A DNA stretch of 64,000 nucleotides from an uncultured bacterium (GCA_938028835.1 CALIMJ010000038.1:8808-72807), one strand, 5' to 3'; positions 2,422-63,726 are shown, numbered from the stretch's first letter. Made by a program: numbers and translations. The notes: a model not told the origin generated them from the letters alone.

Positions 2422-2457
2422 TGGGGCTGTCGAGCGAAGTTGCGGAGGGAGGCGGAC

Positions 2458-2838: not shown

Positions 2839-2839
2839 G

Positions 2840-35897: not shown

Positions 35898-38540
35898 TCA
35901 GTCGTCCTGCAGGGCTTCCCGCACCCGGGCCACCAGTTCGCTGATGAGGAACGGCTTCTGCAGGAAGCCCTTCGCCCCGCGGGCCACAGCGTCGCGGGCG
36001 GCACGCTCGTGTGTGTACCCGCTGGTCAGGAGGATCCGGGCCTCCGGGTCCAGGGTTCGCAGGGCGTCAAAGGTCTGGGTGCCGGAGAGGCCGGGCATGG
36101 TCATGTCCAGGATCACCAGGTCGATCCCCCCCGCGTGCTCCTGGTACAGGCGCAGCGCTTCCTGGCCGTCCGTGGCCACCAGCACCCGGTACCCGCGGCG
36201 GGTCAGCACGTCCCGGAGCAGGTTGCACAGAGGCTCCTCGTCGTCCACCACCAGGATGGTCTCCCCAGCTCCTCCGTCCACCTCCGCCTCCCCCGGCTCC
36301 TCGGGTTCCCCCGCGCCGCTCGCGACCGGCAGGTACATCCGCACCGCGGTGCCCTTCCCTACTTCGCTGTCCACCTCCAGAAAGCCCCCGTGGTTGCGGA
36401 CGATGCCGTACACCATGGCCAGCCCCAGCCCGGTCCCCTTTCCGGGTCCCTTGGTGGTGAAGAAGGGCTCGAACATGCGGGCCCTCACGTGCTCGTCCAT
36501 CCCCACGCCCGTGTCCCGCACGGTCAGGCACACGTACGGCCGCAGGACCGGCGGTTCCCCGGAGGTGGGGTCGGGTGCGATGACCGGTTGCAGGATCAGC
36601 TCGAGGACGCCGCCGTCCGGCATGGCGTCGCGGGCGTTCATGCACAGGTTGAGGACCGCTTGGTGGAGCTGGCTCGCGTCCCCCTCCACCATGGGCAGGT
36701 CGGAGGGGAAGCGCGTGCGCAGCTCGATGCGGGGGTCCAGGGTGCTGCGGAACAGCTCCGTCACCTCGGAGCACAGGCGGGCCAGGTCCAGGGGACGGAC
36801 CTCGAACTTACCCTTGCGGGCGAACCCCAGCAGCTGGCGGGTCAGCTCGGAGGCGCGCAGGGCAGACCGCTCCAGGACATCAAAGTACTGCTGCAGCTCC
36901 GGGCTGCTGGGCAGTTCCTCCTTCAGCAGCCCCAGGTAGCCCACGATGGTACCGAGGATGTTGTTGAAGTCGTGGGCGATGCCGCCCGCGAGGGTGCCGA
37001 TGCTCTCCATCTTCTGTGCCTGCAGGAGCTCCTCTTCCAGGCGCTTGTTGGCGGTGATGTCGCGGTACACACCGAGCACGCCCACCGGCCTTCCCTGGGC
37101 GTCCCGCTGGACCGAGAGGGAGGCGGACACCCAGCTGACTTGGCCGTCCGCGGTCCGGTGCTGCAGCTCCCCGCGCCAGATCCCGTCCCGCAGGAGGTGC
37201 TGGCGCAGGCGCGCGAGGCTGTCCCGGGCCTCGGGCTGCACCAGGGCGTCGAAGTCGCGGCCCACCACGTCGCTGGCCAGCCACCCGTACAGAGCCTCCG
37301 CGGCACGGTTCCAGTACACCACCCGCCCGTCCCAGTCCGTGGCTACGATGGCGTCCTGCACCTGTTCCAGCAGGCTGGCCTGGAAGTGCAGCATCTCCGC
37401 CACGCGCCGGTGCTCCGTGAGATCCCGCACGATCCCCAGCAACATGGGTTTGCCCCGGAGGACCACCCGGTTGGCCTGCAGCTCGCACTCCAGGCGGCTT
37501 CCGTCGGGGCGCACACCCACGAAGCCCACCGCCTCCCCAGGGGACGGGGAGGAGAGCCGTTCCCGCAGGTAGTTGGCGAGCTTGGGGTGGTCCTCGGGCG
37601 CGCACAACGCCAGGGGGCCGAGCCGGCCCACGCACTCCGCAGACGTGGTGCGGAACATCTGCAGGAACCGGCGGTTGACGAAGCGGAACAGCCCGTCCTC
37701 CAGGAGGAACACCCCGTCGGGGGATTCCTCGATGAGGGTACGGTAGCGGGCTTCCGACTCCCGCAGCTCCTCCTCCAGGTGGCGCTGCTCGGTGATGTCC
37801 AGGGCGATGGCCAGCACGAACTGGAGATGTCCCTGGGGGTGACGCATGGGTGCCAGCAGCACCTCCAGGACCCTGGAGGGGGAGGCTGGGCGGCGGGCGT
37901 CCGTGGGCGGCCACGCGAAGTTCTGCAGCTTGACCGCCTGCCCCCGCAGCGCTTCCTCCAAGGCGCTGCGGTGCTGGGGGCCGAACACGGAGCCACCCCG
38001 GAGTGCGTTGGGCGGATCCCCGGACGGAGCCGGGCCTGGACCGAACAGCTCCACCCACGCGCGGTTGGTGGCGATGACCCGGCCGTCCAAGTCGAGCGCC
38101 TGTGCGGGCAGGGGGAAGTCGTGCAGGGCCTGTCGGAGGTGGGAAGCCAGTTCCCGCGCGCCCCCCGCCCCTGGCGGTGTGATGGACCACACCAGAGACC
38201 TGCCCGCGGCCTCGGCGCGGGCGGAGGCCTGCACCACAGTCCCGTCTGCGCGGCGGAGCCCCAGCTCCCCGGTCCACCGCTTGAGCCGCCGCGCCTCCGC
38301 CAGCACGTGGAGGGCCTCGGCAGAGCCGTCCGTCAGCGCGCGGAACGGCAGGCCCACCACCGATCCTGGCTCGAGGCCCACCAGGTCGGCCGCGGGGCGG
38401 TTGGCGGCCACCACCACACCCTGCTCGTCCACCTCCAGCACCGCGTCCGAGACGGCCCGGAGCACCGCCGCTAGGCGCTCGGAAGCTTCCGCCGCCCTAG
38501 GGTCGTCGACGTGTCTTTTCCGCCGCCACAACATCCCCAC
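35898..38540 (-). CDS. Multi-PAS hybrid sensor histidine kinase with C-terminal receiver
   Basis: Four PAS-like segments, HisKA (AHDFNNILGTIVGY), HATPase_c (GTGLGLAMV), REC (ILVVDDEEPL ... DLVILDMTMPGLSG); 880 aa. Confidence 0.8.
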   Translation of the reverse strand: MGMLWRRKRHVDDPRAAEASERLAAVLRAVSDAVLEVDEQGVVVAANRPAADLVGLEPGSVVGLPFRALTDGSAEALHVLAEARRLKRWTGELGLRRADGTVVQASARAEAAGRSLVWSITPPGAGGARELASHLRQALHDFPLPAQALDLDGRVIATNRAWVELFGPGPAPSGDPPNALRGGSVFGPQHRSALEEALRGQAVKLQNFAWPPTDARRPASPSRVLEVLLAPMRHPQGHLQFVLAIALDITEQRHLEEELRESEARYRTLIEESPDGVFLLEDGLFRFVNRRFLQMFRTTSAECVGRLGPLALCAPEDHPKLANYLRERLSSPSPGEAVGFVGVRPDGSRLECELQANRVVLRGKPMLLGIVRDLTEHRRVAEMLHFQASLLEQVQDAIVATDWDGRVVYWNRAAEALYGWLASDVVGRDFDALVQPEARDSLARLRQHLLRDGIWRGELQHRTADGQVSWVSASLSVQRDAQGRPVGVLGVYRDITANKRLEEELLQAQKMESIGTLAGGIAHDFNNILGTIVGYLGLLKEELPSSPELQQYFDVLERSALRASELTRQLLGFARKGKFEVRPLDLARLCSEVTELFRSTLDPRIELRTRFPSDLPMVEGDASQLHQAVLNLCMNARDAMPDGGVLELILQPVIAPDPTSGEPPVLRPYVCLTVRDTGVGMDEHVRARMFEPFFTTKGPGKGTGLGLAMVYGIVRNHGGFLEVDSEVGKGTAVRMYLPVASGAGEPEEPGEAEVDGGAGETILVVDDEEPLCNLLRDVLTRRGYRVLVATDGQEALRLYQEHAGGIDLVILDMTMPGLSGTQTFDALRTLDPEARILLTSGYTHERAARDAVARGAKGFLQKPFLISELVARVREALQDD

Positions 38541-39625: not shown

Positions 39626-41830
39626 ATGATAGGTGGGATGGCGCGCGCTGTTCCGCCTAGGACGACCCGGGTACACCCCGCCCTGCGCCCGCTCCTGCGG
39701 GCTTCGGGGGTGCCGGCGCCGGGGCCCTTCGAGCCTTCCCCTTTCCAGCTGCAGGCGCTGGAGGCGTTCCGGGAGGCCGACGTCCTCGTGGAGGCGCCCA
39801 CAGGAAGCGGGAAGACGTGGATCGCGGAGCAGGCGATCCGGGAGGGGCTGGGGTCCGGGCGCAGGTGCTGGTACACCACACCCCTGAAGGCCCTGTCGAA
39901 CCAGAAGCACCGACGGTTCTGCGGGCTGTACGGGGAGGAGCGCGTGGGGCTGCTAACCGGGGAACGGCGGGTGCGGCCGGAAGCCCCGGTGGTGGTTGCC
40001 ACCACCGAGGTGCTGCGCAACACGCTGTACGACCCGCAGCAGGCGCCTGACCTGGTGGTCCTGGACGAGGCCCACTACCTCAGCGACCCGGAGCGCGGGA
40101 CCGCGTGGGAGGAGGTGATCCTGTACGCGCCCCCCACCACCCGGCTGCTGTTGCTGTCCGCCACCCTGCCGAACGCCGCCGAACTGGCGGACTGGATGGC
40201 GGAGGTCCGCGGGCGCCGGCCCGTGGTGGTCGCGGAGCGCGTGCGGCCCGTGCCCCTGGAGTTCCTGGCTGCGGACGCGGAAGGCCGACTGGTGCCCCTG
40301 GATCGGGCCACGGCGCAAGGCCGCCGGCCCCGGGACTGGGTGGCGGCCGTGATGGCGGCGCTGGAGGAGGCCGGGCTGTTGCCCGCCATTTTCTTCTTTC
40401 CCGCGCGCAGGCTGTGCGACGAGGCGGTGCAACGGCTGGGCAGGCAGGCCGCGCGGGGTGAAGGGGATCGGCGGGAGGTGTGGCGGCGGTGGGAGGAGGA
40501 GTTCCCGCACCTGCGCGGACACCCGTTCCGTGCACCCCTCCTGCGGGCAGGGGTGGCGCCGCACCACGCAGGCCACACCACCGCGTGGCGCCTGGTGGTG
40601 GAGGATCTGCTGGAAAAGGGGCTGTTGCGGGCGGTGTGCGCCACCACCACCCTGGCCGCGGGCCTCGACGTACCCGCCCGGACTGTGGTGCTGACCACCC
40701 TGGTGCGGAGCAGCCCAGAGGGGATGGTCTACCTGTCGGCGACCGAGTTCCACCAGATGACGGGACGGGCCGGCCGCCGGGGCAAGGACACGGTTGGCTT
40801 CGTGGTTCTGCCGGCCCTGGACCCAGACGAACTCGCGCAGGCGGAGGCCCTGATGGGCTCAAGCCCCGAACCCATCCGGTCCGCGTTCGCCCCCACCTAC
40901 CCGCTGGTGTTGAACTTGCTGCGGACGAGGCCCGTGGAGGCCGCGGTGGCAGAGCTGGGCCGTTCCCTGGCCGCTTATCAGCGGAGGCGCCAGGTGGAGC
41001 AGGTGCGCCGGCGCCTGGAGTCGATCCCACCGGACCCTCTAGTGGATCGGCCCTGTGGGGACCGGCTGTACACGCGGGTGCGGTACGAGCGTCTGCGGGA
41101 GCGTCCGGAAGTTCACGCGGCGGATCTGGCCGCTTGGCCCTGCCGCACCTGCCCCGTGGAGGGGCGATGCGTAGAGTCCCTGGAGGCCCTGCGGCGGATG
41201 GAGCAGCAGCGGTCCCGGTTACGCCGGGAGTTGCTGCAGCTCGAGGGCGAACTGCAGGACGTGTTCCGCGCCCGCGCGCGCGTCCTCCAGCGCCTGGGCT
41301 ACCTGGACCCCGCCTACCGGTCCACCGCGGAAGGCAACTGGGCCGCGCGGCTGCGGCACCCCAGGTGTCTGGTGCTGGCGGAGCTGGTCCGCAGGGGCCT
41401 GCTGCCCACAGACCCACACCGGCTGTGCGGCTACGCCGCGGCCCTGAGCACCGAGCGAGCTCCCCGGCTCGGCCAGGAGGCGGGTCTGGACGTGCTGGCG
41501 CGCCTGGTGGAGGCGCTGGCGGAGGTGGAGACCCAGGAGGGGCTGCCGCCGGAGGGCTTGGTGGATGAGTTCCGCCCGCAGTGGGACCGGGCCTTACGGA
41601 GGGTGCTGCCCTCCAGCGCGGACCGCCGGGCGTGGGCGGCTCAGGCGTGGAGTGCGGGAGCGGACTTTTCGGTCCTCTGCCGGGAGCTGGACGTGGCCGA
41701 GGGAGATCTGCAGCGCATCCTTCTGCAGGCGGCGGAGATCTGCAACCAGCTGGCGGAGCTGCCTCAGGCGGAGGTTTCCCGGCCCGCAACCCAGGCTCGG
41801 GACCGTCTGCTGCGGCCCCCCGTGGTCTAG
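39626..41830 (+). CDS. Ski2/HelY-like DEAD/DEAH-box helicase
   Basis: Motif I APTGSGKT, Ia TTPLKALSNQK, II DEAHY, III SAT; Ski2-type arch/C-terminal region; ~735 aa. Start is ATG 39626 or 39638. Confidence 0.75.
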   Translation: MIGGMARAVPPRTTRVHPALRPLLRASGVPAPGPFEPSPFQLQALEAFREADVLVEAPTGSGKTWIAEQAIREGLGSGRRCWYTTPLKALSNQKHRRFCGLYGEERVGLLTGERRVRPEAPVVVATTEVLRNTLYDPQQAPDLVVLDEAHYLSDPERGTAWEEVILYAPPTTRLLLLSATLPNAAELADWMAEVRGRRPVVVAERVRPVPLEFLAADAEGRLVPLDRATAQGRRPRDWVAAVMAALEEAGLLPAIFFFPARRLCDEAVQRLGRQAARGEGDRREVWRRWEEEFPHLRGHPFRAPLLRAGVAPHHAGHTTAWRLVVEDLLEKGLLRAVCATTTLAAGLDVPARTVVLTTLVRSSPEGMVYLSATEFHQMTGRAGRRGKDTVGFVVLPALDPDELAQAEALMGSSPEPIRSAFAPTYPLVLNLLRTRPVEAAVAELGRSLAAYQRRRQVEQVRRRLESIPPDPLVDRPCGDRLYTRVRYERLRERPEVHAADLAAWPCRTCPVEGRCVESLEALRRMEQQRSRLRRELLQLEGELQDVFRARARVLQRLGYLDPAYRSTAEGNWAARLRHPRCLVLAELVRRGLLPTDPHRLCGYAAALSTERAPRLGQEAGLDVLARLVEALAEVETQEGLPPEGLVDEFRPQWDRALRRVLPSSADRRAWAAQAWSAGADFSVLCRELDVAEGDLQRILLQAAEICNQLAELPQAEVSRPATQARDRLLRPPVV

Positions 41831-41851
41831 ACGCCTCGAAAGGGGGTGGGT

Positions 41852-43162
41852 CTACGGGCGCCCCGTGACGTGGAGCTGACCTGCCGGCGTGAACTGTTCG
41901 GTCTCCGTGGAGCCCGCCAGGGCCACGGTGGAGCTGACCCCCAGGGCCTGAAGCACCGTGTCGAAGTACCCGGTGCCCGCCTCCCTCTGGTGCCGGGTGG
42001 CGGTGTACCCGTCCTGCTCCATCTGGAACTCCCGCTCCTGCAACTCCACGTAGGCGGCCATCCCCCGCCGCGCGTAGTCGTGGGCCAGCTGGAAAGCGGA
42101 GGCGCAGAGCGCGTGGAAGCCTGCCAGGGTCACGAACTGGAACCGGTAGCCCAGGGCCGCTAGCTCCTGCTGGAAGCCCGCGATGGACTGCGGGTCCAGG
42201 TGCCGGCGCCAGTGGAAGCTCGGAGAGCAGTTGTAGGCCAGCAGCTTGCCCGGGAAGCGGGCGTGGATGGCCTCCGCGAAACGCGCGGCCTCCTCCAGGT
42301 CCGGCCGGGAGGTCTCAAACCACAAAAGGTCCGCGTAGGGCGCGTACGCCAGAGCGCGGTGGATGGCGGCTTCCAGCCCCGACCGGACCACATGGTAGCC
42401 CTCAGGGGTGCGCTGGCCGGTGAGGAAGGACGCGTCGTAAGGGTCCGCGTCGCTGGTGAGCAGGCGGGCGTCCCGGGCGTCGGTCCGGGCCACGAGCACC
42501 GTGGGCACGTCGCAGACATCCGCGGCCAGCCGGGCTGCCTGCAGGACCCGCACGAACTGGGCGGTGGGGACCAGGACCTTGCCGCCCAGGTGCCCGCACT
42601 TCTTTTCGGAGGCGAGCTGGTCCTCGAAGTGCACCGCAGCGGCGCCCGCCTCGATGAAGGCGCGGGTCACCTCGAAGGCGCTGAGGGGGCCACCGAATCC
42701 CGCCTCCGCGTCGGCCACGATGGGGACGAGCCAGTCGCGGTGCACCCGGCCCTCAGCCCACTCGATCTGGTCCGCCCGGCGCAGGGCGTTGTTGATCCTG
42801 CGGACCAGCGCCGGCCCGCTGGTCCACGGGTAAAGCCCGAGGTCCGGGTAGGTGGTCTCCGCCAGGTTGCTGTCCGCAGCCACCTGCCAGCCACTCAGGT
42901 AGATGGCCTGTAGCCCCGCCCGAACCATCTGTACGGCCTGCATCCCGGACAGCGCGCCTAGGGCCGCCACGAACGGTTCCTCGTGCAGTGCCCTCCACAG
43001 CCGCTCGGCGCCCCGACGGGCCAGGCTGTACTCCACGCGCACCGAGCCGCGCAGGCGCACCACGTCTCGGGCGGAGTACAGACGGCGGACTCCCCTCCAG
43101 CGAGGCTCCGTGTGCCAGCGGTGCTCGAGCTCAAACGCCTCCCGCTCCAGGGCACTCTCCAT
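41852..43162 (-). CDS. aceA: Isocitrate lyase
   Basis: ATG 43162 after GGAGGG; catalytic KKCGH motif, ICL signature; 436 aa. Confidence 0.85.
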
Positions 43163-43209
43163 CTCGCCCTCCTGACCTGGGACTCGTTGTCGACCGGGGA
43201 AGGGGACGG

Positions 43210-43389
43210 CTAGGACGCTTCCGGCAGGGCCGCCAGCTCCGCTTCCAGCTCCCCGAGCGCCGCGCACGCCGCGCAGTAGGCGGTCCCCTCGGGGGTGTAC
43301 GCACAGTTCGGGCAGCAGGGAGCGCCACAGCTCTGGCAGGTCCACGCCTCGAACCAGCGCACCGTCCTTCCACACCAACACGTCGCCAT
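43210..43389 (-). CDS. Small Cys-rich zinc-ribbon-like protein (59 aa)
   Basis: ATG 43389 5 nt after GAGGTGA; 9 Cys in 35 aa (CWCGRTV...[14 protein letters not shown]...YCAAC), then a short helical tail; 47 nt upstream of aceA. Confidence 0.45.
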
Positions 43390-43545
43390 GGCAGTCACCT
43401 CGCCCCTACTGTGCGCGCCCGGCCCGGCGACCCTCCACGGCCCGGCGACCAACTCCCCCGAGCGGGGGGCGAATGGTTCAAAAACGGTGATGAGTGGGCG
43501 CACCCGCAAGGGCCTCAGATAAACGTTGTTGATCAGTCGCTGGTC

Positions 43546-44253
43546 CTAAAGGTGCAGCAGCAGGCGGAGGGTTCGGGCCGCGGATCGGCTCACGGGGATC
43601 TCAGTTCCGCGGTCGTCGTCCAGCTTGAGCAGCAGTGTCCCGGAGAAGTAGGGGTGGACCTCCCGGACGCAATCCAGGTTCACCACGTAGCTGCGGTGTA
43701 CCCGGACGAACTGGGCGGAGGGCAGCCGGCGTTGCAGGTGGCCCACGTTGCAGCTGGCCTCTACCGTCCCGTTCCGCGTGACGACCCGGCAGGTGTCGCC
43801 CTGCGCCTGCACGTACAGGATGTCGGAGGGGTCTACGAGCACCACGTGGTCGCCCGTGGGTACCGCCACCCGGGAAGCGGGGACCGGCTCTTCCTGCAAC
43901 AGCCGCTCCAGGGTCTTCCGCAACCGGGTGCGGTCCACGGGCTTGAGCAGGTAGTCAAAGGCCGCGGCCTCGAAGGCCTCCAGAGCGTGGTCCTCGAACC
44001 CCGAGACCAGCACGACCCGGGGTTTGCGGGGTAACGCAGCCAGTCTCCGGAGCAGGTCCAGGCCGGAAAGCCCGGGCATCCGGATGTCGAGGAACAGGGC
44101 GTCCACGGGCCCCTCGCGCAGCCGTTCCAGGGCGGCCTCCGCCGAGTCCACGGATTCCACGTCCTCCTGCCCCTCTTCCCGGAGCAGCTCTTCCAGGTAG
44201 CGGCGGGCTTCCGGGTCGTCGTCGGCCACCAGCAGCCGGAGGCGGCGGGTCAC
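43546..44253 (-). CDS. LytTR-family response regulator
   Basis: GTG 44253 overlaps kinase stop (GTGA); REC (RLLVADDD ... DALFLDIRMPGLSG) plus LytTR DNA-binding domain; 235 aa. Confidence 0.8.
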   Translation of the reverse strand: MTRRLRLLVADDDPEARRYLEELLREEGQEDVESVDSAEAALERLREGPVDALFLDIRMPGLSGLDLLRRLAALPRKPRVVLVSGFEDHALEAFEAAAFDYLLKPVDRTRLRKTLERLLQEEPVPASRVAVPTGDHVVLVDPSDILYVQAQGDTCRVVTRNGTVEASCNVGHLQRRLPSAQFVRVHRSYVVNLDCVREVHPYFSGTLLLKLDDDRGTEIPVSRSAARTLRLLLHL

Positions 44254-45386
44254 GACCTTCCCTCCACACGCCGCGGCAGCCATACGGTCACCCGGGTGCC
44301 GCGGCCCTCCTCGCTCTCCACCCGCAGGCCCGCCGCCTCTCCGTAGATGGCCCGCAGCCTGCGCTGCACGTTGAACAGCCCGATCCCCAACCCCGACCCG
44401 ACTCCCCGCTCGGTGACCACCTGCAGGCGGCCTTCCGGGATGCCCACCCCGTCGTCCTCTACCACCAGGACTAGGTCGTCCCCCCGTACCCCAGCCTGCA
44501 CCCGGACCGTCCCGGAGCCCGTCTTCGGCTCCACCCCGTGCACCACGGCGTTTTCCACCAACGGCTGCACGGTCAGGACGGGGACCAGCTCGCCCAGCAG
44601 GTCCCCGGGCACGTCCACCTGCGCCCGGAGGCGCGACCCCAGCCGGGCCCGCTCGATGGCCAGGTACTGCTCCACGTACCACAGCTCTTCCTCCAGGGTG
44701 CAGAACTCCCCGTGGGAGCGGAGCGCGTGCCGCAAGAACTCTGCGAAGTCGGTGAGCAGCCTGCGGGCCCGCTCGGGATCCCGGCCCACCACCGCAGCCA
44801 CCGAGTGGAGGGTGTTGAACACGAAGTGCGGGGAGATCTCCGCCCGCAGGGCCCGCAGCTCTTCTCGAGTAAGCCGCTCCACCTCCGCGTCCAGGAGGGC
44901 CAGCTCCAGCTGGGCGCCCAGCAGGTCACCCACCAGGGCTGCCCCCTCCACCACCTCCTGAGCGAAGGGACGGCCGTCGGTGCGGTAGAACTTGAGGGCC
45001 GCCGGCACCATCCCGCGGACCCGCAGGGGGACCACCAGGGCTGCCGTGAGGGGGCAGCGCGGCTCCGGGCAGCCGATCTCCTCTCGGGTGTGCGCCACCT
45101 GTACCTGGCCAGTGCGGAGGACGCGTTTGGTGAACTCCGTGGTGACGGGCTGGCCCGCTACGTGGTGGTCGTCGCCTGCGCCCACGAAGGCCAGGACCTG
45201 AGCTCGGCCCACTAGGGCCACGGCGTCCGCGCCCACGGCCTCACGCAGCATGCGGGCTACCTCCGCGGCGGCCTCTCGGGTGAGGCCGCGGCGGAAGACG
45301 TCTCGGGCCTGCCGGCTGACCTCCACCAGCTTCTGCACGGTGGGGACCAGCAGGGCCCGGTGGAGGCCGTCCACCACCCGTGGCAT
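44250..45386 (-). CDS. Cytoplasmic GAF-domain sensor histidine kinase (LytS/YehU-type His_kinase + HATPase_c)
   Basis: GAF-like N-terminal half, H-box EISPHFVFNTLHSVA, HATPase (GVGSGLGIGLFNVQRRL); no TM segments; 378 aa. Confidence 0.75.
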   Translation of the reverse strand: MPRVVDGLHRALLVPTVQKLVEVSRQARDVFRRGLTREAAAEVARMLREAVGADAVALVGRAQVLAFVGAGDDHHVAGQPVTTEFTKRVLRTGQVQVAHTREEIGCPEPRCPLTAALVVPLRVRGMVPAALKFYRTDGRPFAQEVVEGAALVGDLLGAQLELALLDAEVERLTREELRALRAEISPHFVFNTLHSVAAVVGRDPERARRLLTDFAEFLRHALRSHGEFCTLEEELWYVEQYLAIERARLGSRLRAQVDVPGDLLGELVPVLTVQPLVENAVVHGVEPKTGSGTVRVQAGVRGDDLVLVVEDDGVGIPEGRLQVVTERGVGSGLGIGLFNVQRRLRAIYGEAAGLRVESEEGRGTRVTVWLPRRVEGRS

Positions 45387-45512
45387 GCCAGCCAGCTCCT
45401 GCGTTTACCAGGATAGCGCGCCCGCAGGCGAGCCTGGGCCCAACTTTATTTATCCACCGGCGCGATGCCGCCCACAGGAACCGCCGGCTGGGCCTCGAAA
45501 ACTCTCCTAACC

Positions 45513-46334
45513 ATGAGGCAGGCAGAGGGCGAGCGCACGTTCGGATTCGAGAAGTTCAGCAGCCACGGGTTCTTCCGTGAGGTCAACCGCTGGTTGGTGG
45601 AGCACGTCGGCATCCGACCGGGAGACACGGTGGTGGACTTGGGCTGCGGGCCTGGCGCCGTTACGCAGCTCATCCTGGAGCACGTGGACCCACAGGCGGG
45701 CGCGGTGGTCTATGCCATCGACCCTTCGCCCTCCGCGCTGGAAACCGCGCGCCAACGCATCCGGTCCGCCGTGGTGCGGTTCCTGGAGGGGACCGCGGAG
45801 CGGCTCAGCCAGCTGGTACCCGCCGCGGACGTGGTGCTGTTCTGCAACGCCATCCACCTCGTGCAGGACAAGGTTCAGGTGGTGCGGGAAGCCCTGGCCG
45901 TCCTGCGCCCGGGTGGCGTGTTCGGCTTCAACACCACCTTCTTCGAGGGCGCCTACCCTCCCGAGACGCTGCGGTTCTACAAGCTGTGGATGCTGCGGGC
46001 GGTCCGGCACCTGAAGGAACGCGGCCTGGAGGTCGCCAGGGGCGTGAAGGCCACCGCCATGCGCTGGCTGACTCCGGAGGAGTACGAGGAGCTCCTGCGG
46101 GCGAACGGGTTCGGGGACGTACGCGTCCACCTGCAGCGGCAGGAGCTGTCCTGCCAGAGCCTGGAAGACATCAGCGAGTTCTCCCTGTTCATCGAGGGCG
46201 CGCTGCCCGGTGTGCCGCTCCAGGAGGCGTGCGAAGCCCTCAAGCTGGGCGTCCGGCAGGCGTTTCAGGAGATGGCCCTGGCCGCGGTGCCCCGCAATTG
46301 GCTCCAGGTCATCGCCCGGCGCGGCACCCGCTGA
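45513..46334 (+). CDS. Class I SAM-dependent methyltransferase
   Basis: Motif I VVDLGCGPG, motif post-I, LRPGGVF; longest ORF begins at 45465. Confidence 0.65.
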   Translation: MRQAEGERTFGFEKFSSHGFFREVNRWLVEHVGIRPGDTVVDLGCGPGAVTQLILEHVDPQAGAVVYAIDPSPSALETARQRIRSAVVRFLEGTAERLSQLVPAADVVLFCNAIHLVQDKVQVVREALAVLRPGGVFGFNTTFFEGAYPPETLRFYKLWMLRAVRHLKERGLEVARGVKATAMRWLTPEEYEELLRANGFGDVRVHLQRQELSCQSLEDISEFSLFIEGALPGVPLQEACEALKLGVRQAFQEMALAAVPRNWLQVIARRGTR

Positions 46335-50099: not shown

Positions 50100-50281
50100 C
50101 TCCCCCGGTCTTCGCGGATCGCCACCCCGGTTCCTGCGGGAGCCCCTCCACCTCACGGACATAGACCGCAGCTATCCGTGGCATAGCGCGCATCGATTGG
50201 AAGGCGGTCACGGGGCGTGCTAGGTTGGGCGTGCGGGGACCGCCCGGAGGCGGCACCCGGTTGGGTCCGGAGGGAGAGGCC

Positions 50282-52162
50282 GTGCGCGTGAACCACGTGA
50301 AGCTCCTGGTCGGGGGGGTTCAGCTCCGCGACGGCGTGACCACCGTCACCGACATTCTCGGGAAGATCTTTACCCGCGCGGGGCTGTTCGCGGTGGCCAT
50401 GGAGAAGGGCTACGCGTCCACCATCTACGGGGCGCACCAGTTCGACCCCATGCTGGTCACCGAGGAACCTCCGGTGTCCTACGGAGATGCCGAGGTGGAC
50501 GTGCTGGTGGCCCTGGACTACGACAGCAACCCGGACGCCCCGGAGCAGCCCAACCGCGACACGGTGCTGCGGCACGGCGGCAAGCTGCGGGACGGCGGGA
50601 TCCTGGTGTACGACTCGTCGACCGGCGAGATCCCCACCGGAGCCCTGGAGGCGCGGGGCATCCAGGTCTTCCCCATCCCCGCCCGCAGGATCGCGCAGGC
50701 GGAGCTGAAGCGGGAGATCGTGAAGAACGTGGTGATGACCGGGGCCCTGTTCCGCCTGCTGCAGTTCGACTCCGACGAGACGTACCTACGGCAGCTGCTG
50801 GAGGAGCGGTTCCTGCGGAAGGGCCGTGAGGTGGTGGAGCTGAACCTGCAGGCGGCGCGGCGAGGCCGTCAGGAAGTGGAGCGAGTGCTGGAGGCGAACG
50901 GCTACGAGCTCCCCGTGCGGCTGGAGCCGCGGCCGGGCCGGCACCGGGCCGTGTACATCTCCGGGAACGAGTGTCTCGGGCTGGGCGCCATCGCGGGGGG
51001 GGTGCGCTTCTACGCGGGCTACCCCATCACGCCGGCCAGCAGCATCCTCGAGTTCATGGAGCAGTGGCTGCCCCGGTACGGCGGGCGCGCCCTGCAGGGC
51101 CAGAACGAACGGGAGAGCATTCGGGCCGCTCTGGGTGCTGCCCTGGCGGGGGTGCGGTCCATGGTGGGCAGCTCCGGGCCGGGGATCTCGCTGAAGGTGG
51201 AGGAGTTCGGAGTCAGCGGGGCGACGGAGACCCCCGTGATCGTGGTGGACGCTCAGCGAGCGGGGCCCTCTACGGGCATGCCCACGCGTCCGGAACAGGG
51301 CGACCTGAACCTGGTGATCGGGGGCGGCCACGGGGACTTCCCGCGGATCGTTCTGGCACCGGGCACCGTGGAGGAGTGCTACACCCTGATGCTGGAGGCG
51401 TGTGAGCTGTCGGACAAGTACCAGTGCCCGGTGTTCTTCCTGACGGACCTGAACCTTTCGGAGGGGAAGAAGACGGTGCTCGAGGAGGTGTTCCGGCGGC
51501 CTCAGGTGGTCCGGCACGGGATCGTGCGGGAGGAGGTCCGCTCTAAGCCCTACCGGCGGTTCGAGATCACCCCCTCCGGCATCTCTCCGCGCAGCGTGCC
51601 GGGCACCCCGGGTGTGGTCTTCAAGGCGAGCGGGGCGGAGCACGACGAGTTCGGGTTCGTGTCCATCGACCCGCGCAAGCGGGCGGCCATGATGGAGAAG
51701 CGCATGCGGAAGCTGGACACCTACCTCCGGGAGGACTGGAAGCCGCCGCAGGTGTTCGGCTCCGTGCGGGGGAACCCGGTACTGGTCGGCTGGGGGAACA
51801 CCCGGCCCGTGCTGGAGGAGGCGCGCTTGCTCCTGCAGCGCCGCGGGGTGCCGGTGGCCTTGGTCCACTTCACCCACGTCTTCCCGTTGCACCGCAGGAA
51901 GCTGGAGGCCCTGTTCGCGGACGCGGGCCCCGTGGTGGTGGTGGAGCAGAACTTCAGCGGTCAGTTTGCAGACCTGCTGCAGCGGGAGCTTCGGATCGCC
52001 ACCCGTCGGGTCAACAAGTACAACGGGGTGCCCCTCTACCCCACCGAGGTGGCGGAGGCCGTGCTGCAGGCCCTGCGGCGGGAGGGCGCGGTGGTGCGGA
52101 TCGGGGGCGACAGCCAGCCCGTGCCCGTGGAGGTAGGCCGCAATGAACACGAAGGGGATTAA
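50282..52162 (+). CDS. korA: 2-oxoacid:ferredoxin oxidoreductase, fused gamma-alpha subunit
   Basis: GTG after GGAGGGAGAGG; N-terminal gamma-like domain plus alpha domain (ISGNECLGLGAIAGG, YPITPAS). Confidence 0.8.
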   Translation: MRVNHVKLLVGGVQLRDGVTTVTDILGKIFTRAGLFAVAMEKGYASTIYGAHQFDPMLVTEEPPVSYGDAEVDVLVALDYDSNPDAPEQPNRDTVLRHGGKLRDGGILVYDSSTGEIPTGALEARGIQVFPIPARRIAQAELKREIVKNVVMTGALFRLLQFDSDETYLRQLLEERFLRKGREVVELNLQAARRGRQEVERVLEANGYELPVRLEPRPGRHRAVYISGNECLGLGAIAGGVRFYAGYPITPASSILEFMEQWLPRYGGRALQGQNERESIRAALGAALAGVRSMVGSSGPGISLKVEEFGVSGATETPVIVVDAQRAGPSTGMPTRPEQGDLNLVIGGGHGDFPRIVLAPGTVEECYTLMLEACELSDKYQCPVFFLTDLNLSEGKKTVLEEVFRRPQVVRHGIVREEVRSKPYRRFEITPSGISPRSVPGTPGVVFKASGAEHDEFGFVSIDPRKRAAMMEKRMRKLDTYLREDWKPPQVFGSVRGNPVLVGWGNTRPVLEEARLLLQRRGVPVALVHFTHVFPLHRRKLEALFADAGPVVVVEQNFSGQFADLLQRELRIATRRVNKYNGVPLYPTEVAEAVLQALRREGAVVRIGGDSQPVPVEVGRNEHEGD

Positions 52163-53006
52163 GCTCTGGGAGGAGAACGCCGTCCCTAAGCACCGCATCC
52201 AGTGGTGCCCGGGTTGCGGGGACTTCGGGGTGCTGGCGGCCCTCAAGCAGGCCCTCACGGAACTGGAGGTCATGCCCCACGAGCTGCTCCTGGTGGGCGG
52301 GATCGGTTGCTCGGGCCAGATCCGCAACTACCTGAACGGCAACGCGTTCCACGGTACCCACGGGGGCGCCCTCGCCTACGGGCTGGGCGCGAAGATGGCC
52401 AACCCGGACCTGAAGGTCATCTGCCTGGCGGGGGATGGCGACACCCTGGCCATCGGGGTGGAGAACTTCGTGCACGTGTGCCGGCGGGACCCCGACATGG
52501 TGCTGCTGGTCATGAACAACGGGGTGTACGGGCTTACGAAGGGACAGGACTCCCCCACCGCGGGCCTGGGGCAACCGGACGAACGCGGCAGCCGGGAGGA
52601 GCACCCGCCCATGGTGGACGCGCTCCTGCTGGCGCTGGCCAGCGAGGCCACCTTCGTGGCGCAGTCCTTCAGTGGGGACGTCAAGCACACGGCGCGGATG
52701 ATCGTGGAGGCCATCCAGCACCCCGGCTTCGCGTTCATCAACGACTTCTCCCCCTGCGTCACCTACAACCGCTTCAACACCTACGACTGGTTCCGGGAGC
52801 GGGTGGAGTACGTGCCGGACGACCACGACCCCTCCGACCGGGACGCGGCCTGGAGGTTGGTGCGAGAGTTCGCGCGCCGGGGCAAGATCCCCCTGGGCGT
52901 GGTGTACCGGAACCCGCGGCCGAAGCGGCCCCAGCGCCGGCTCCCCATGTGGGAGGACGAGCTGTCCGGGGTGGACCTGGATCCGGTCCTGGCGGGCTAC
53001 CGCTAG
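52143..53006 (+). CDS. korB: 2-oxoacid:ferredoxin oxidoreductase beta subunit (TPP-binding)
   Basis: WCPGCGDFG, TPP motif GDGDTLAIG; 287 aa; 20-nt overlap with korA. Confidence 0.85.
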   Translation: MNTKGIKLWEENAVPKHRIQWCPGCGDFGVLAALKQALTELEVMPHELLLVGGIGCSGQIRNYLNGNAFHGTHGGALAYGLGAKMANPDLKVICLAGDGDTLAIGVENFVHVCRRDPDMVLLVMNNGVYGLTKGQDSPTAGLGQPDERGSREEHPPMVDALLLALASEATFVAQSFSGDVKHTARMIVEAIQHPGFAFINDFSPCVTYNRFNTYDWFRERVEYVPDDHDPSDRDAAWRLVREFARRGKIPLGVVYRNPRPKRPQRRLPMWEDELSGVDLDPVLAGYR

Positions 53007-56452: not shown

Positions 56453-57210
56453 GGGACGTTCCCGCCATCCGGGTGGAGAACCTGACGGTGTCCTACCGGG
56501 GCAAGCCGGCCATCCGGAACGTGAGCGTTGTCGTGGGGCAAGGGCTGCGGGTGGGGCTCATCGGCCCCAACGGCGCGGGCAAGTCCACCCTGCTGCGGGC
56601 TTTGGTGGGGCTTCTGGTGCCGGACACCGGGCGGGTGGAGCTGTTTGGCCGGCCCGTCCGGGAGGCGCGCAAGCTGGTGGCCTACGTGCCGCAGCGCAGC
56701 GAAGTGGACTGGGACTACCCCGTGGTGGCGGAGGAGGTGGTCCTCATGGGACGGTTCCCCCACGTGGGCTGGGTGCGCCGGCCGCGGCCGGAGGACCGGC
56801 GCGTGGCGCGCGAGTGCCTGCGGCAGGTAGGGATGGAAGCCCTGGCGCACCGTCAGATCGGACAGCTGTCCGGGGGCCAGCAGCAGCGAGTTTTCCTGGC
56901 GAGGGCTCTGGCCCAGGAAGCCCGGCTGCTCCTCCTGGACGAGCCCTTCGTGGGTGTGGACGCAGCCACCGAGGAGGCCATCTACGGTCTGCTGGACCGG
57001 TTGCGGGAGGAGGGGCGGACGGTGGTGGTGGCCACCCACGACCTGAGCCGCGCCCAGACCGCTTTCGACCGGCTGCTGCTGCTGAACCAGCACGTGGTGG
57101 CCTACGGCCCGCCCGCGGAGGTGTTCCAGCCTGCGCTGCTGCAGCGCACCTACGGGGGCCGGCTCACCCTCCTGGAGGTGGCGGACCAGAGGATGGCGAT
57201 CAGGCCATGA
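56449..57210 (+). CDS. Metal ABC transporter ATP-binding protein
   Basis: GTGA overlap; Walker A GPNGAGKST, signature LSGGQQQR, Walker B LLLLDEP; 253 aa. Confidence 0.85.
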   Translation: MRDVPAIRVENLTVSYRGKPAIRNVSVVVGQGLRVGLIGPNGAGKSTLLRALVGLLVPDTGRVELFGRPVREARKLVAYVPQRSEVDWDYPVVAEEVVLMGRFPHVGWVRRPRPEDRRVARECLRQVGMEALAHRQIGQLSGGQQQRVFLARALAQEARLLLLDEPFVGVDAATEEAIYGLLDRLREEGRTVVVATHDLSRAQTAFDRLLLLNQHVVAYGPPAEVFQPALLQRTYGGRLTLLEVADQRMAIRP

Positions 57211-58736
57211 GCCTGTGGGAGCTGGTGGTCGAACCCCTGCAGTACACCTTCATGCAGCGGGCCCTGACGGCCGCCCTACTGGTGGGCAGCATCTGCGCGG
57301 TGCTCAGCTGCTTCCTGCTGGTCAAGCGGTGGGCCCTGTTGGGCGACGCCATCTCGCACGCGGTGCTTCCAGGGGTGGCCCTCGCGTACCTGTTGGGCCT
57401 GCCCTTCTTCGTGGGGGCGGTGACCACGGGAATTTTGACCGCGCTGGGGATCTCCGCGGTGGAGCGGCACACCCGGATCAAGGAGGACTCCGCGATGGGC
57501 ATCGTGTTCACGGGCGCCTTTGCCCTGGGCTTCGTCCTGGTGAGCCGCATCCGCAGCAAGGCGGTGGACCTGTTCCACATCCTGTTCGGGAACGTGCTGG
57601 GGGTCTCGGACTCGGACCTCGTGCTGACCGCGGTCACGGGCGCGGTGGTGTTGGGAGCGGTCCTGCTGCTGTACAAGGAGCTGGTCCTGTGGACGTTCGA
57701 CCCGGTCGCCGCCGCGGCCATGGGGCTGCCCACGGGCGTGCTGCACTACACCCTCATGTTCCTGCTGTCGCTCACCATCGTGGCGTCCCTGCAAACCGTC
57801 GGCATCGTCCTGGTCGTGGCCATGCTGATCACCCCCGGCGGCGTGGCCTTCCTCCTGACGGACCGCATGTCGCGGATGCTCGGCCTGGCGGTGGCGGTCG
57901 GGGTGGTGTCCACCGTCACAGGCCTGTACCTCTCCTACTACCTGAACGTGGCCTCCGGTGCCACCATGGTCCTCGTGGCGAGCCTGTTGTTCTGCGCGGC
58001 GGTGCTCCTGGGCCCCCGGGAGGGGTTGGTGTGGGAGTGGATGCGGCGCAGGCGCCTGGCGGAGGAACGGGTGGCGGAGGACTTCCTCAAACAGGCCTAC
58101 GTGCTCGGCCCGGAGGGCTGGGCACCGGAACGGGTGGCGGAGCGGGTGGGCCTTTCGGCGCGCCGGGCCTGGCAGCTCCTGCGGAGGCTGCAGAAGGCGG
58201 GGCTGGTGCGCTGGGACGGGTCACGGGTGAGCCTGAGCGAGGCCGGGAGGGCGAGGGCGGTGGAGCTGGTCCGTTCGCACCGCCTGTGGGAACGGTACCT
58301 GGTGGAACAGGCGGGCCTGTCGTGGGCGGAGGTCCACGCGGAGGCGGAGCGGCTCGAGCACCTGAGCCCGACGGAGCTGGCGGCCCGGTTGGACGAGGCC
58401 CTGGGCCATCCCCGGCGGGACCCCCACGGGTCGCCGATCCCCCCCGAGGTCGCAGGCGCGGTGCCTTCGGTCCGCCTGCTGGATCGCGCACCGGGCGAGC
58501 GGGTGGAGGTGCGGGAGGTGGAGGACGAGGACCCGGAGGTCCTGCGGGCCCTCGAGGCGCGCGGGGTGCGGCCGGGCGTCCGTCTGGAGGTGTTGGAACG
58601 GGCTCCGGGTGGCCTGCGGGTGCGGTGCGACGGAGAGGAGGTGTGGCTGGACGCGCACCTGGCGGCCGCGGTGTACACGCAGGCGGAGGCAGGGTCCAGG
58701 GACGACGACGGGATGTCTGAGCTCCAAGGTGTGTAG
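57207..58736 (+). CDS. ABC-3 metal permease (MntB/ZnuB-like) fused to a C-terminal DtxR-family repressor domain
   Basis: ATGA overlap with the ATPase gene. First ~280 aa are an ABC-3 permease (8 TM). The remaining ~225 aa are a complete DtxR-like module: HTH, VRSHRLWERYLVEQAGLSWAEVHAEAERLEHLSPTE, DPHGSPIP, and an FeoA-like C-domain. No stop separates the two. Confidence 0.75.
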   Translation: MSLWELVVEPLQYTFMQRALTAALLVGSICAVLSCFLLVKRWALLGDAISHAVLPGVALAYLLGLPFFVGAVTTGILTALGISAVERHTRIKEDSAMGIVFTGAFALGFVLVSRIRSKAVDLFHILFGNVLGVSDSDLVLTAVTGAVVLGAVLLLYKELVLWTFDPVAAAAMGLPTGVLHYTLMFLLSLTIVASLQTVGIVLVVAMLITPGGVAFLLTDRMSRMLGLAVAVGVVSTVTGLYLSYYLNVASGATMVLVASLLFCAAVLLGPREGLVWEWMRRRRLAEERVAEDFLKQAYVLGPEGWAPERVAERVGLSARRAWQLLRRLQKAGLVRWDGSRVSLSEAGRARAVELVRSHRLWERYLVEQAGLSWAEVHAEAERLEHLSPTELAARLDEALGHPRRDPHGSPIPPEVAGAVPSVRLLDRAPGERVEVREVEDEDPEVLRALEARGVRPGVRLEVLERAPGGLRVRCDGEEVWLDAHLAAAVYTQAEAGSRDDDGMSELQGV

Positions 58737-61729: not shown

Positions 61730-63148
61730 CTAGGCGGGACCCTTGCCGGGGTTCAGGATGCCCTCGGGGTCCAGCAGGACCTTGATCCGCCGCATCCACT
61801 CCAGGGCGGGGCCGTGTTCTGCGGCCAGGAACTTGCGCTTGCGCAGCCCCACCCCGTGCTCTCCGGTGGCGGTGCCCCCCACCTCCAGGGCCCGGTGCAC
61901 CAGCCGCTCGCTGTAGGCCTCCGCGCGGGGGTACTGGTCGGGCGGGGTGGCCACGAACACGTGGAAGTTGCCGTCCCCCACGTGCCCCACGATGCCGCCC
62001 ACGAGCGCCATCTCCTGGAGGAGCTGGTGGGCGAAGGCCACCAGCTCGGGGAGCTGCGACAGCGGCACCGCCACGTCCGTGGTGAGGAACGCGTGCCCGG
62101 GGTACGCGTGGGTCGCCGCCCAGTACACCTTGTGGCGGGCCTCCCACACGGCGCTGCGCTCCTCGGGGGTGTGGGCGGCCTGCACGAGTCCGGCCCCGTG
62201 GTCCCGGCAGACGCCCAGCACCGCCTCCGTCTCGGCCCGCAGGGCTTCCTGGGTGGACGAGTGGAACTCGAGGAACAGGGCCGGCTGTTCGGGGTCCCGG
62301 CGATCCAGGAAGGCGTTGACCACCCGCATGCTGAGGTCGTCCACCAGCTCCAGGCGCGCCACCGGTAGGCCCGTGGCCATGATCTCGTAGGCGGCCTCCG
62401 ACGCGGCCTCCACGGACGGGAAGAAGGCGCGGGCGGCGTGTACGTGCGCGGGGAGTGGGTGCAGGCGGACCGTGAGGCGCGTGATAACGCCCAGGGTCCC
62501 CTCCGAGCCGATGAACAGGTCCTTCAGGTCGTATCCGGAGCTGGTCTTGCGCACCGGCCGGCCCAGCTCCAACACCTGGCCGTCCGCCAGCACCACCTGG
62601 AGTCCCAGGACGTTGTGCCGCATGCCGCCGTACCGGACCGTGGTGGTGCCGGACGCGTTGGTGGCCGCCATGCCTCCCAGGGAGGCATCGGCGCCCGGGT
62701 CCACGGGGAAGAACAGCCCGTGGTGGCGCACCGCCCGGTTCAACGCGCCGTGGGTCACCCCGGGCTCCACGGTGGCCAGGAAGTCCTCGGGCCGCACCTC
62801 CAGGATCCGATCCATGCGGGAGAGGTCGAGGCTGATGGCAGGGCCCAGGGGGACCAGGGCCCCCTCGAGGCTGCTCCCCGCGCCGTAGGGAATCACCGGG
62901 ACTCGGTACTCCCGGGCCACGGCCAGGACCGCGCGGACGTCCTCCACACTGTGGGCGAAGACTACCGCCAGCGGCCGACGCGACTCTGGGTAGCCCTCGT
63001 CCCGCCCGTGACTGTCCAGGACAGACTCCACCGTGGACACACGGCCTGCTCCCAGTCGCTCTACAAGGTCGGACACCAGCTCCACGGGCTGTAACCTCCC
63101 GGTGCGCCTAGGCTCGGATCCATGATACGCGGTGCGGCTTGCTGTCAT
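61730..63148 (-). CDS. glcD: FAD-linked oxidase (GlcD / D-lactate dehydrogenase family)
   Basis: ATG 63148; FAD-binding PCMH domain (VIPYGAGSSLEGA), FAD-oxidase C-terminal domain; 472 aa. Confidence 0.8.
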   Translation of the reverse strand: MTASRTAYHGSEPRRTGRLQPVELVSDLVERLGAGRVSTVESVLDSHGRDEGYPESRRPLAVVFAHSVEDVRAVLAVAREYRVPVIPYGAGSSLEGALVPLGPAISLDLSRMDRILEVRPEDFLATVEPGVTHGALNRAVRHHGLFFPVDPGADASLGGMAATNASGTTTVRYGGMRHNVLGLQVVLADGQVLELGRPVRKTSSGYDLKDLFIGSEGTLGVITRLTVRLHPLPAHVHAARAFFPSVEAASEAAYEIMATGLPVARLELVDDLSMRVVNAFLDRRDPEQPALFLEFHSSTQEALRAETEAVLGVCRDHGAGLVQAAHTPEERSAVWEARHKVYWAATHAYPGHAFLTTDVAVPLSQLPELVAFAHQLLQEMALVGGIVGHVGDGNFHVFVATPPDQYPRAEAYSERLVHRALEVGGTATGEHGVGLRKRKFLAAEHGPALEWMRRIKVLLDPEGILNPGKGPA

Positions 63149-63606: not shown

Positions 63607-63726
63607 GGGTTCTCCCGCGGCCTCCCTGCACTAACGGCTCCTGTTTGAGGGTACCCCGGGGCCTGGCCAGGTCCACGGAGCGATCCCGCAGGCGGGGAGT
63701 TGGAGCCACATGGCTGGACCCGACGA

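Follow-up and report, generated by a model that had tools for sequence, protein, structure and literature searches.

The subject of this analysis is a four-gene block on the minus strand of a 64,000-nucleotide (64-kb) stretch of DNA, here called the window, from an uncultured hot-spring bacterium of the phylum Sysuimicrobiota. The block encodes a LytS-type histidine kinase, a LytTR response regulator, a nine-cysteine mini-protein and isocitrate lyase (ICL, the aceA product). Our comparisons suggest that the kinase and regulator control the transcript of the mini-protein open reading frame (mini-ORF) and aceA in response to a cytoplasmic signal, and that the mini-protein is a two-zinc finger that probably binds ICL. 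We put the probability of this combined reading at about 0.5. Its two parts can be graded separately; two-component control of the mini-aceA operon is probable, and an enzyme-associated zinc-finger accessory is the most likely role of the mini-protein. The whole case is one of sequence comparison, in which all compared sequences come from metagenome-assembled genomes (MAGs) or metagenomes. The nearest relatives of the window are MAGs of Sysuimicrobiota (CSP1-3, GAL15 group), many of them labelled Armatimonadota; the kinase of 'Ca. Tepidifontimicrobium thermophilum' (locus L081) is 98% identical to the window kinase, and the ICL of locus L067 is 97% identical to the window ICL.

The kinase gene (44250..45386, minus strand; 378 residues, with GAF, His_kinase PF06580 and HATPase_c domains in Pfam) is joined to the regulator gene (43546..44253, minus; 235 residues, REC and LytTR in Pfam) by an overlap in which the kinase stop codon TGA and the regulator start codon GTG share the sequence GTGA. 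A 156-nt spacer (43390-43545) separates the regulator gene from the mini-ORF (43210..43389, minus), which encodes 59 residues, nine of them Cys, and has a ribosome-binding site (RBS), GAGGTGA, 5 nt ahead of its ATG. After a further 47 nt comes aceA (41852..43162, minus; 436 residues), which has its own RBS, AGGAGG, at 43168-43173. Its product matches the Pfam ICL family at 8.7e-97, passes the cut-off of the NCBIfam isocitrate lyase model NF011645 (712 bits, cut-off 562) and carries the KKCGH catalytic motif. This layout had been put forward in an original prediction made on the window, and a check of the sequence bore it out in each respect, namely the strand and coordinates of each gene, the overlap at GTGA, the 156-nt spacer with the two AT-rich stretches quoted from it (local GC 0.63 compared with ~0.71), and the nine-Cys ORF with its RBS and its distance from aceA. 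Malate synthase was not found among 20 scanned window ORFs, including all of at least 450 residues, nor within ±8 kb around relatives. As none was found in the window, service of AceA in a classical glyoxylate shunt is no more than possible.

At least 13 genomes or contigs of Sysuimicrobiota carry the kinase-regulator-(mini)-ICL block, and its genomic surroundings in them are of three different types. The complete order is present in L001-L009, L039, L043, L057, L067, L079 and L081, with mini-protein identities of 81-98%, and in L053 the order kinase-regulator-mini runs to a contig end before the ICL position is reached. In the window type of neighbourhood the block is flanked by methyltransferase and helicase genes. 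A second type (L011, L014 and L071) has PPDK, PEPCK and sigma-70 genes upstream and Cpn60 downstream, with a BpsA_C gene interposed between the regulator gene and the mini-ORF; the kinases of L011 and L014, the two for which this was measured, are 68-71% identical to that of the window. In these three loci, and also in L079, the mini-ORF stop codon overlaps the ICL start. The third type, L010, lies between M24 peptidase and NAGPA genes and has a kinase 75% identical to the window's, followed by regulator and ICL genes with no mini-ORF. Recurrence of the kinase-regulator-miniprotein-aceA arrangement in relatives was a check named by the original prediction; it is present for kinases down to 68% identity and in all three neighbourhoods. 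The integrity of the block through these changes of flanking genes supports a link between the kinase-regulator pair and mini-aceA.

Alignment of ten orthologous regulator-mini spacers (mean identity 66%) provides a footprint in which conserved islands stand amid variable DNA. Box A, GATCAACAACGTTTATCT (43517..43534, minus), lies right after the regulator stop codon and coincides with the first of the AT-rich stretches; its pattern is GATCA-N6-TTTATCT, in which CGATCA and TTTATCT are invariant or nearly so and the flanks vary. Box B, TCATCACCGTTTTTGAACCATTC (43471..43493, minus), coincides with the second AT-rich stretch and has a CCGTT core. Its pattern, TCATCA(C/G)CGTTTTTGAACC, is kept in 10/10 spacers, has a homologous counterpart in L010 and occurs only once in the window when up to three mismatches are allowed. 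Box C, which reads GAGTTGGTCGCC here and GACCGTTCGCC in some loci, and Box D, an invariant GTGGAGG, together occupy 43432..43455 (minus) and form a composite, GTT[CG]G-N10-GT[GC]GAG, at -64/-49 from the mini-ORF ATG. The sequence CACAGT, a possible -10 element, and the RBS that follows it (43395..43413, minus) are conserved as well. The stretch from Box D to the RBS is non-coding, since frame-breaking indels occur there among the orthologs.

The composite of Boxes C and D appears to be tied to the two-component system. It occurs once per locus in 13 of 14 kinase-regulator loci (389 kb, both strands), always 63-72 nt ahead of the operon start codon, even in L010, where that operon has no mini-ORF; and it stays with the mini-ORF promoter despite the BpsA_C insertion in L011 and L071. 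It was not found in L045 ('Ca. Geohabitans tengchongensis'), in which a divergent LysR gene adjoins the mini-ICL genes and there is no two-component system. The composite thus seems to track the kinase-regulator pair and to be gone where LysR replaces it, and we regard it as a candidate regulator site and/or core promoter. In L010, L011, L014, L071, L053 and L079, Box C has the form CCGTTCG(T/C/G)C, which is the consensus of AlgR, itself a LytTR regulator, or a one-base variant of it; the consensus itself, CCGTTCGTC, is exact in L011, L014 and L071, with one-base variants in L010, L053, L079 and L016. This 9-mer has been experimentally defined as the AlgR consensus (PMC4787818).

The kinase matches the GAF family (PF01590, E 7.9e-6) over residues 38-159 and the transmitter families PF06580 (8.2e-22) and PF02518 (2.7e-17). 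Its H-box, PHFVFN, contains the predicted phospho-acceptor His187, which is invariant in our kinase alignment (A5), as is the N-box PLVENA-xHG. A Pfam search gave no match in the kinase to PF07694, the 5TMR-LYT membrane input domain. Consistent with this, its alignment to a membrane LytS protein (P0060) begins only at residue 192 of the latter, the ORF is closed by an upstream stop codon that permits no N-terminal extension, and the orthologs are 375-391 residues long. On these grounds the kinase is classed as a LytS-type enzyme that does without the 5TMR-LYT domain, and therefore only an intracellular signal should be readable to it, through the GAF domain or a partner. Within the GAF domain, residues 73-112 (about 45051-45170) carry a motif, DHH...EEIGC-x4-CP, that is common to membrane LytS proteins, and His75, Cys106, Cys111 and Pro112 are invariant in 40 soluble kinases; the motif is a candidate family-wide metal or redox site. 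Upstream of the kinase gene, in 45387-45464, a conserved GCGCTATCCTGG, possibly a -10 element, is found 15-25 nt ahead of the kinase start, both in the window and in L081, L039 and L006. An AT-rich GGATAAATAAAGTTGGG with a Box-C-like GTTGG lies ~30 nt upstream of it, and the two may indicate autoregulation.

The regulator has a receiver domain (REC, PF00072, 3.5e-27) and a LytTR domain (PF04397, 3e-24), and its receiver residues are intact, with D11-D13, the predicted acceptor D56 and the Lys of ...LLKP all in place. Its best NCBIfam match is BtsR, at 130 bits, under the equivalog cut-off of 246, and by these scores it is assigned to the LytTR family without being a BtsR ortholog. BtsS/BtsR and YpdA/YpdB are pyruvate-responsive systems of carbon metabolism (PMC10653868, PMC5552118). 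The premise of the original prediction, that LytTR regulators mostly control autolysis, competence or bacteriocins, is thus outdated, and because the nearest named family is BtsR, a connection with carbon metabolism is less exotic than was then supposed. Pyruvate is bound by BtsS in its membrane domain (PMC10653868); for the GAF domain of the LytS family, intracellular sensing has been proposed as the role (PMC5552118).

Soluble relatives of the kinase are also found in other settings. A Vulcanimicrobiaceae MAG (GCA_054303145.1; L016:3216-10992) has a soluble GAF-LytS kinase and a LytTR regulator, 49% and 37% identical to those of the window, within a Calvin-cycle cluster that comprises LysR, RuBisCO L/S, a CbbX-like AAA protein, the kinase, the regulator, PRK, FBPase (glpX) and FBA; ACCGTTCGC-type boxes follow the homologous regulator gene in its regulator-PRK spacer. 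On high-GC metagenome contigs (L093, L094, L097, L099 and L102), 5/5 full-length soluble GAF-LytS/LytTR pairs are followed by a small membrane protein and an ActP-like SSF sodium:solute symporter, which suggests a clade-wide link to monocarboxylate uptake. Taken with the literature on BtsSR, YpdAB and LytS, the contexts of the soluble clade point to carboxylate or carbon-status sensing as a family theme. In L012/L013:7961-8254, a pair whose kinase is 59% identical is followed by an unrelated 97-residue CxxC...CxxC protein, not by mini-ICL.

Comparison with characterised systems shows which elements of this locus are shared and which are not. In AlgZ(FimS)/AlgR of Pseudomonas aeruginosa, the regulator recognises the consensus that Box C reads in L011, L014 and L071, the window Box C agreeing with it at 6/9 positions. 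AlgR also uses single 9-mers with irregular spacing, not strict 21-bp repeats, and its partner AlgZ is a membrane-bound kinase in which the usual ATPase motifs are missing. The AlgR regulon comprises virulence and alginate functions, whereas the putative target here is aceA. With BtsS/BtsR and YpdA/YpdB of E. coli (PMC10653868, PMC5552118, PMC5431176) the present pair shares the kinase core of GAF, PF06580 DHp and HATPase_c domains, the REC-LytTR regulator, the adjacency of kinase and regulator genes and, putatively, a target in central carbon metabolism. Unlike BtsS, the window kinase has no 5TMR-LYT/7TM part, the one that binds pyruvate in BtsS; the putative target is an enzyme (ICL) where theirs is a transporter, and the phylum differs. 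Two-component input to aceA, or to acetate and glyoxylate-shunt genes, has been reported for RegB/RegA in Brucella (PMC5435760), AmsSR in Acinetobacter (PMC10112286) and MxtR/ErdR in Pseudomonas/Vibrio (PMC9927547). LytTR regulators and soluble GAF-LytS kinases are absent from all three systems, and in none of them do the genes immediately precede aceA with a mini-protein gene in the gap; in the literature on the glyoxylate shunt and two-component systems we found no LytTR-aceA case.

The mini-ORF, whose status as a genuine gene the original prediction had made a point of, is clearly translated to judge by purifying selection, the median dN/dS across 45 ortholog pairs being 0.065 and the synonymous sites close to saturated. 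The encoded protein has the signature C-x-C-G-x11-C-x2-C-G-x2-C-C-P-x-C-x9-C-x2-C. All nine Cys residues, which fall within 39 residues, are invariant in a 22-member alignment, and the first gap is x10-11 across the family. A degenerate DNA pattern of this signature matches only the mini-ORF in the 64-kb window and gave 0 matches in 100 shuffles. No database record holds the exact mini-protein sequence. A HMMER search of 1.84 billion representatives returned ~18 small relatives and one protein in which the domain is attached to the C-terminus of a TPP-binding POR beta subunit, and a profile search of a 5.8-billion-sequence set returned 81 clusters, all 'hypothetical' and none with a Pfam domain; nor did Pfam and NCBIfam assign any significant family to the mini-protein and 63 relatives. 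On these searches we take the mini-protein to be a member of an undescribed and unannotated family.

An AlphaFold2 model built from 63 sequences (pLDDT 74) consists of short hairpins and a C-terminal helix, residues 40-54. The top Foldseek matches are FYVE-type fingers, with CARP2 (1y02) at TM 0.63; CARP2 is also the best sequence match in the PDB (E 0.065), these scores being statistically not decisive. The predicted fold is accordingly a FYVE-like two-zinc cross-brace finger, with four Cys pairs cross-braced and a helix as in CARP2, rabphilin-3A (1zbd), melanophilin (2zet) and RIM2 (2cjs). These known examples are eukaryotic and have eight Cys residues, whereas the mini-protein is free-standing, bacterial and has nine, including a CC doublet. 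The FYVE motifs WxxD, R(R/K)HHCR and RVC, which form the phosphatidylinositol 3-phosphate pocket, were not found in the mini-protein, and PF01363 (FYVE) was matched by 1/63 members, at E 0.27. The mini-protein thus resembles a FYVE domain but is not one. The earlier description of it as zinc-ribbon-like finds only scattered sub-threshold matches (among them DZR_2 in 3/63 members, best E 0.013), and the FYVE-type cross-brace is predicted to be closer, since nine Cys residues and this fold suit two cross-braced sites better than the single zinc site of a ribbon. Rubredoxin was considered and rejected, as just 3 residues separate the CxxCG knuckle from the CPxC knuckle, where rubredoxin has roughly 25-30, and there is no Pfam rubredoxin match.

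With the degenerate DNA pattern we located the family at 71 places in species-representative genomes, mostly of Methylomirabilota/Rokubacteria together with Sysuimicrobiota. The same-strand gene straight downstream belongs to the ICL superfamily in 37/71 loci. It is a true ICL in 10, which represent four divergent mini-protein subfamilies (the window type, L045, L065 and L087), and a 323-residue ICL-like protein of the phosphoenolpyruvate (PEP)-mutase family, which falls under every NCBIfam cut-off, in 27. Elsewhere the downstream gene encodes a D-Glu cyclase with hydantoinase/oxoprolinase (15 loci), a zinc-dependent alcohol dehydrogenase (Zn-ADH; 3 loci), an HpcH aldolase (2 loci), an SDR protein (1-2 loci) or a small membrane protein (4 loci). 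The nine-Cys domain is fused to POR beta in 2 loci, two tandem mini paralogs occur in ten, and three further loci have unrelated or stand-alone contexts. Mini genes are typically preceded by an intergenic region of 160-370 nt, with a sigma-54 activator gene upstream in at least four subfamilies, and sigma-54 -24/-12 promoters (score at least 9) are found ahead of 14/78 mini genes compared with 2/355 background segments. In the window spacer the best match to such a promoter (TGGCAC-N5-TTGC) is 6/11, the background level. This distribution presents the mini-protein as a module that, in at least two phyla, is encoded by the first cistron of regulated metabolic operons; it is enriched beside ICL-superfamily enzymes and not limited to them.

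The Rokubacteria/Methylomirabilota loci (L017-L087, for example L058:3577-6388) have a fixed order of L9, DnaB, sigma-54 activator, mini, (mini2), ICL-like and VTT genes, and in a subset (L019, L020, L024, L058 and L068) TGGAAC-N5-CTTGCT promoters lie ~62 nt upstream of mini. In the fusions (P0143; L028:1693-3330; L066) the nine-Cys domain is C-terminal on the thiamine pyrophosphate (TPP)-binding beta subunit of a 2-oxoacid:ferredoxin oxidoreductase, with the alpha gene upstream. Contigs L023, L038, L044, L050, L055 and L068 carry the labels Acidoferrum, Dormibacterota, Limnocylindria, Gemmatimonadales, Deferrimicrobiaceae and the archaeon Nitrosocosmicus, together with Rokubacteria synteny and 87-96% protein identity; they are probably mis-binned. 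Because of such Rokubacteria-like contigs under foreign labels, we treat the phylum spread given by MAG labels with caution.

The mechanism we favour would begin with a cytoplasmic signal, by analogy with the relatives of the kinase a C2/C3 carboxylate or another indicator of carbon status, that is read by the GAF-LytS kinase, which would then phosphorylate the LytTR regulator. Phosphorylated at Asp56, the regulator would bind the conserved boxes of the 156-nt spacer and activate the promoter of a bicistronic mini-aceA transcript; read-through from the kinase and regulator genes into mini-aceA would also be possible, since no terminator is visible. The only terminator-like site in 41700-45600 is inside aceA, on the wrong strand, and Rfam gave no match, and so no known riboswitch or leader RNA, over 41500-45800. 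The first cistron would supply the FYVE-like two-zinc finger together with ICL, for which it would most likely act as a protein-binding accessory, either a stabiliser or a zinc- or thiol-dependent switch.

Several observations weigh against this mechanism, beginning with its regulatory half. Adjacency alone is no proof of regulation; kinase orthologs below 60% identity do not adjoin ICL, and a metagenome scan with the kinase alignment brought up mostly generic LytS kinases, none of which adjoins ICL among the matches listed. The window Box C, GAGTTGGTC, agrees with only 6/9 positions of the AlgR consensus, and the window shows no excess of the strict AlgR 9-mer (3 found, 6.4 expected), so that the case rests on the footprint and not on a motif match. 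The CGTT-core boxes of the window are 39, 32 and 15 bp apart, compared with 21-22 bp in canonical LytTR direct repeats; ACCG-type repeats 21 bp apart are seen in L011 and L014. Boxes C and D could be a core promoter, not an activator site, and no sigma-70-like promoter was recognised in 41700-45600. In an alternative reading the gene order has no regulatory meaning. The kinase-regulator pair would then act on other genes or on itself alone, mini-aceA would have a separate promoter that answers to another regulator, and the boxes would be a core promoter or the site of some other factor. The fixed 15-bp spacing of Boxes C and D and their fixed distance from the start codon do look like a core promoter, an AlgR-like 9-mer is statistically not rare in the GC-rich DNA of the window, the mini-ICL genes stand beside a LysR gene in L045, and distant kinase orthologs adjoin other genes. 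We nevertheless consider this alternative unlikely, as the block has held together across three changes of neighbourhood and one gene insertion, the composite accompanies only the kinase-regulator pair and is missing from L045, and characterised LytTR systems typically act on an adjacent target (PMC5552118). The regulatory input into aceA that the original prediction proposed can therefore be retained in part: two-component control is reasonable because the block is conserved, its boxes are footprinted and several orthologous loci have an AlgR-type box, while the view of LytTR regulators on which it was built does not stand.

The role of the mini-protein is open to other explanations. The enzymes encoded next to it include some with unrelated chemistry (D-Glu cyclase, HpcH aldolase, SDR and Zn-ADH), and it sometimes stands alone and is missing from L010, all of which speaks against an ICL-specific role; the other downstream enzymes and the solitary occurrences rule out a subunit that is solely ICL-specific. 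Nor is it a specific co-factor of the sensor pair, as had been suggested, given the LysR gene of L045, the sigma-54 activators of Methylomirabilota, the unrelated enzymes and the mini-less L010. It may nonetheless have some part in sensing redox state or metals. CsfB/Gin of Bacillus subtilis (5n7y) is a small zinc-finger anti-sigma factor that acts on the transcription machinery, and in PspA-PspF the product of an operon acts back on the activator of that operon. A comparable zinc-finger feedback modulator, an anti-activator or co-sensor that as first operon product acts on the activator or RNA polymerase, would explain why mini is almost always the first cistron past a long regulated intergenic region, why it lies directly downstream of genes for sigma-54 bacterial enhancer-binding proteins (bEBPs; at least four subfamilies), a LytTR regulator or LysR, why sigma-54 promoters are enriched ahead of it, and why the activator-mini order is constant while the downstream enzyme varies (ICL-like, ADH or SDR). 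Such a modulator would, however, have to recognise three structurally unrelated classes of activator; the mini-protein has no sequence similarity to CsfB/Gin, occurs with three unrelated activator types and as an enzyme fusion, on POR beta, and is found in loci with no nearby regulator (PepC26-mini-D-Glu cyclase; L168). Start-stop overlap of the mini and enzyme genes suggests stoichiometric co-production, and the kinase-regulator-ICL locus L010 manages without it. We judge feedback decidedly unlikely. A metal or redox carrier in place of a protein-interaction finger, be it an Fe(Cys)4 protein akin to rubredoxin, an Fe-S protein, a zinc buffer of the metallothionein kind or a metallochaperone, would be in keeping with nine invariant Cys residues in 39, including the CxxCG and CPxC knuckles, with fusion to the beta subunit of a ferredoxin-dependent 2-oxoacid oxidoreductase, and with the metal or redox sensing first proposed for this protein. 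It is quite improbable, since the knuckle spacing CxxCG-x2-CCPxC fits neither rubredoxin nor ferredoxin, Pfam finds no rubredoxin, ferredoxin or prokaryotic metallothionein match in the mini-protein, both the fold prediction and the top sequence match in the PDB are of FYVE/RING type with structural zinc sites, and none of the ICL, PEP-mutase-like, HpcH and D-Glu cyclase enzymes depends on an electron carrier. That the mini-ORF is itself a chance or mis-called frame can be regarded as effectively refuted. A 99-residue TTG ORF and a 509-residue GTG-extended aceA ORF do overlap the region, and database calls of mini orthologs begin further upstream, giving 75 and 69 residues; these longer frames were rejected because of frame-breaking ortholog indels upstream of the mini ATG and the dN/dS of the mini frame, which has in addition a canonical RBS and a nine-Cys signature kept across phyla. 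An accessory of the co-encoded enzyme is thus the role for the mini-protein that we prefer.

ICL stands at the split point between the tricarboxylic acid cycle and carbon conservation, and to our knowledge its control outside model Proteobacteria, Actinobacteria and Firmicutes has hardly been described. Two-component control of aceA by other families and LytS/LytTR control of carbon genes were known already; new here are the tie of aceA to a membrane-less LytS variant, and a mini-protein family not described before. There are no isolates of Sysuimicrobiota (CSP1-3/GAL15), and the description of the phylum is silent on ICL and glyoxylate (PMC11604079). The membrane-less kinase is a concrete candidate for a LytS/LytTR-family sensor that reads carbon status inside the cell. 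The mini-protein family is strongly constrained, recurs at the head of operons and is tractable for biochemistry; small proteins of this kind are systematically overlooked by annotation. It is conceivable, although we are doubtful, that the mini-protein is the founding member of a new bacterial class of FYVE-like two-zinc fingers that gate carbon flux at the isocitrate branch point. If so, these would be leading cistrons of LytTR, sigma-54 bEBP or LysR operons that dock on the co-encoded enzyme or activator, and a zinc/thiol (redox)-dependent post-translational gate would form an unrecognised layer of control in Sysuimicrobiota and Methylomirabilota.

Other features of the window were recorded in passing. 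Two genes beyond aceA, 35898-38540 (minus) encodes an 880-residue PAS-PAS-HisKA-HATPase-REC hybrid kinase, which in relatives is followed by Iso_dh, an isocitrate or isopropylmalate dehydrogenase (L006:15470-16210). Glycine-cleavage genes at 709-4213 (plus) encode a 570-residue T protein with an extra N-terminal DinB/MDMPI-like domain, then a 132-residue ORF, probably GcvH, and a P-protein subunit; they may be relevant to what becomes of glyoxylate and glycine, the lineage being reported to use the reductive glycine pathway. A 2-oxoacid:ferredoxin oxidoreductase (50225-53006, plus), 5 kb off the locus, comprises a fused gamma-alpha subunit of 645 residues and a beta subunit of 287 residues that is without the mini-domain. 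At 61730-63709 (minus) is a GlcD-like FAD-linked oxidase with an N-terminal extension of ~240 residues, which could be a glycolate or D-lactate oxidase and hence linked to glyoxylate. At 56814-58736 (plus) an unusual 640-residue fusion protein is encoded, in which an ABC-3 metal-transporter permease is joined to DtxR-type Fe_dep_repr_C and FeoA domains.

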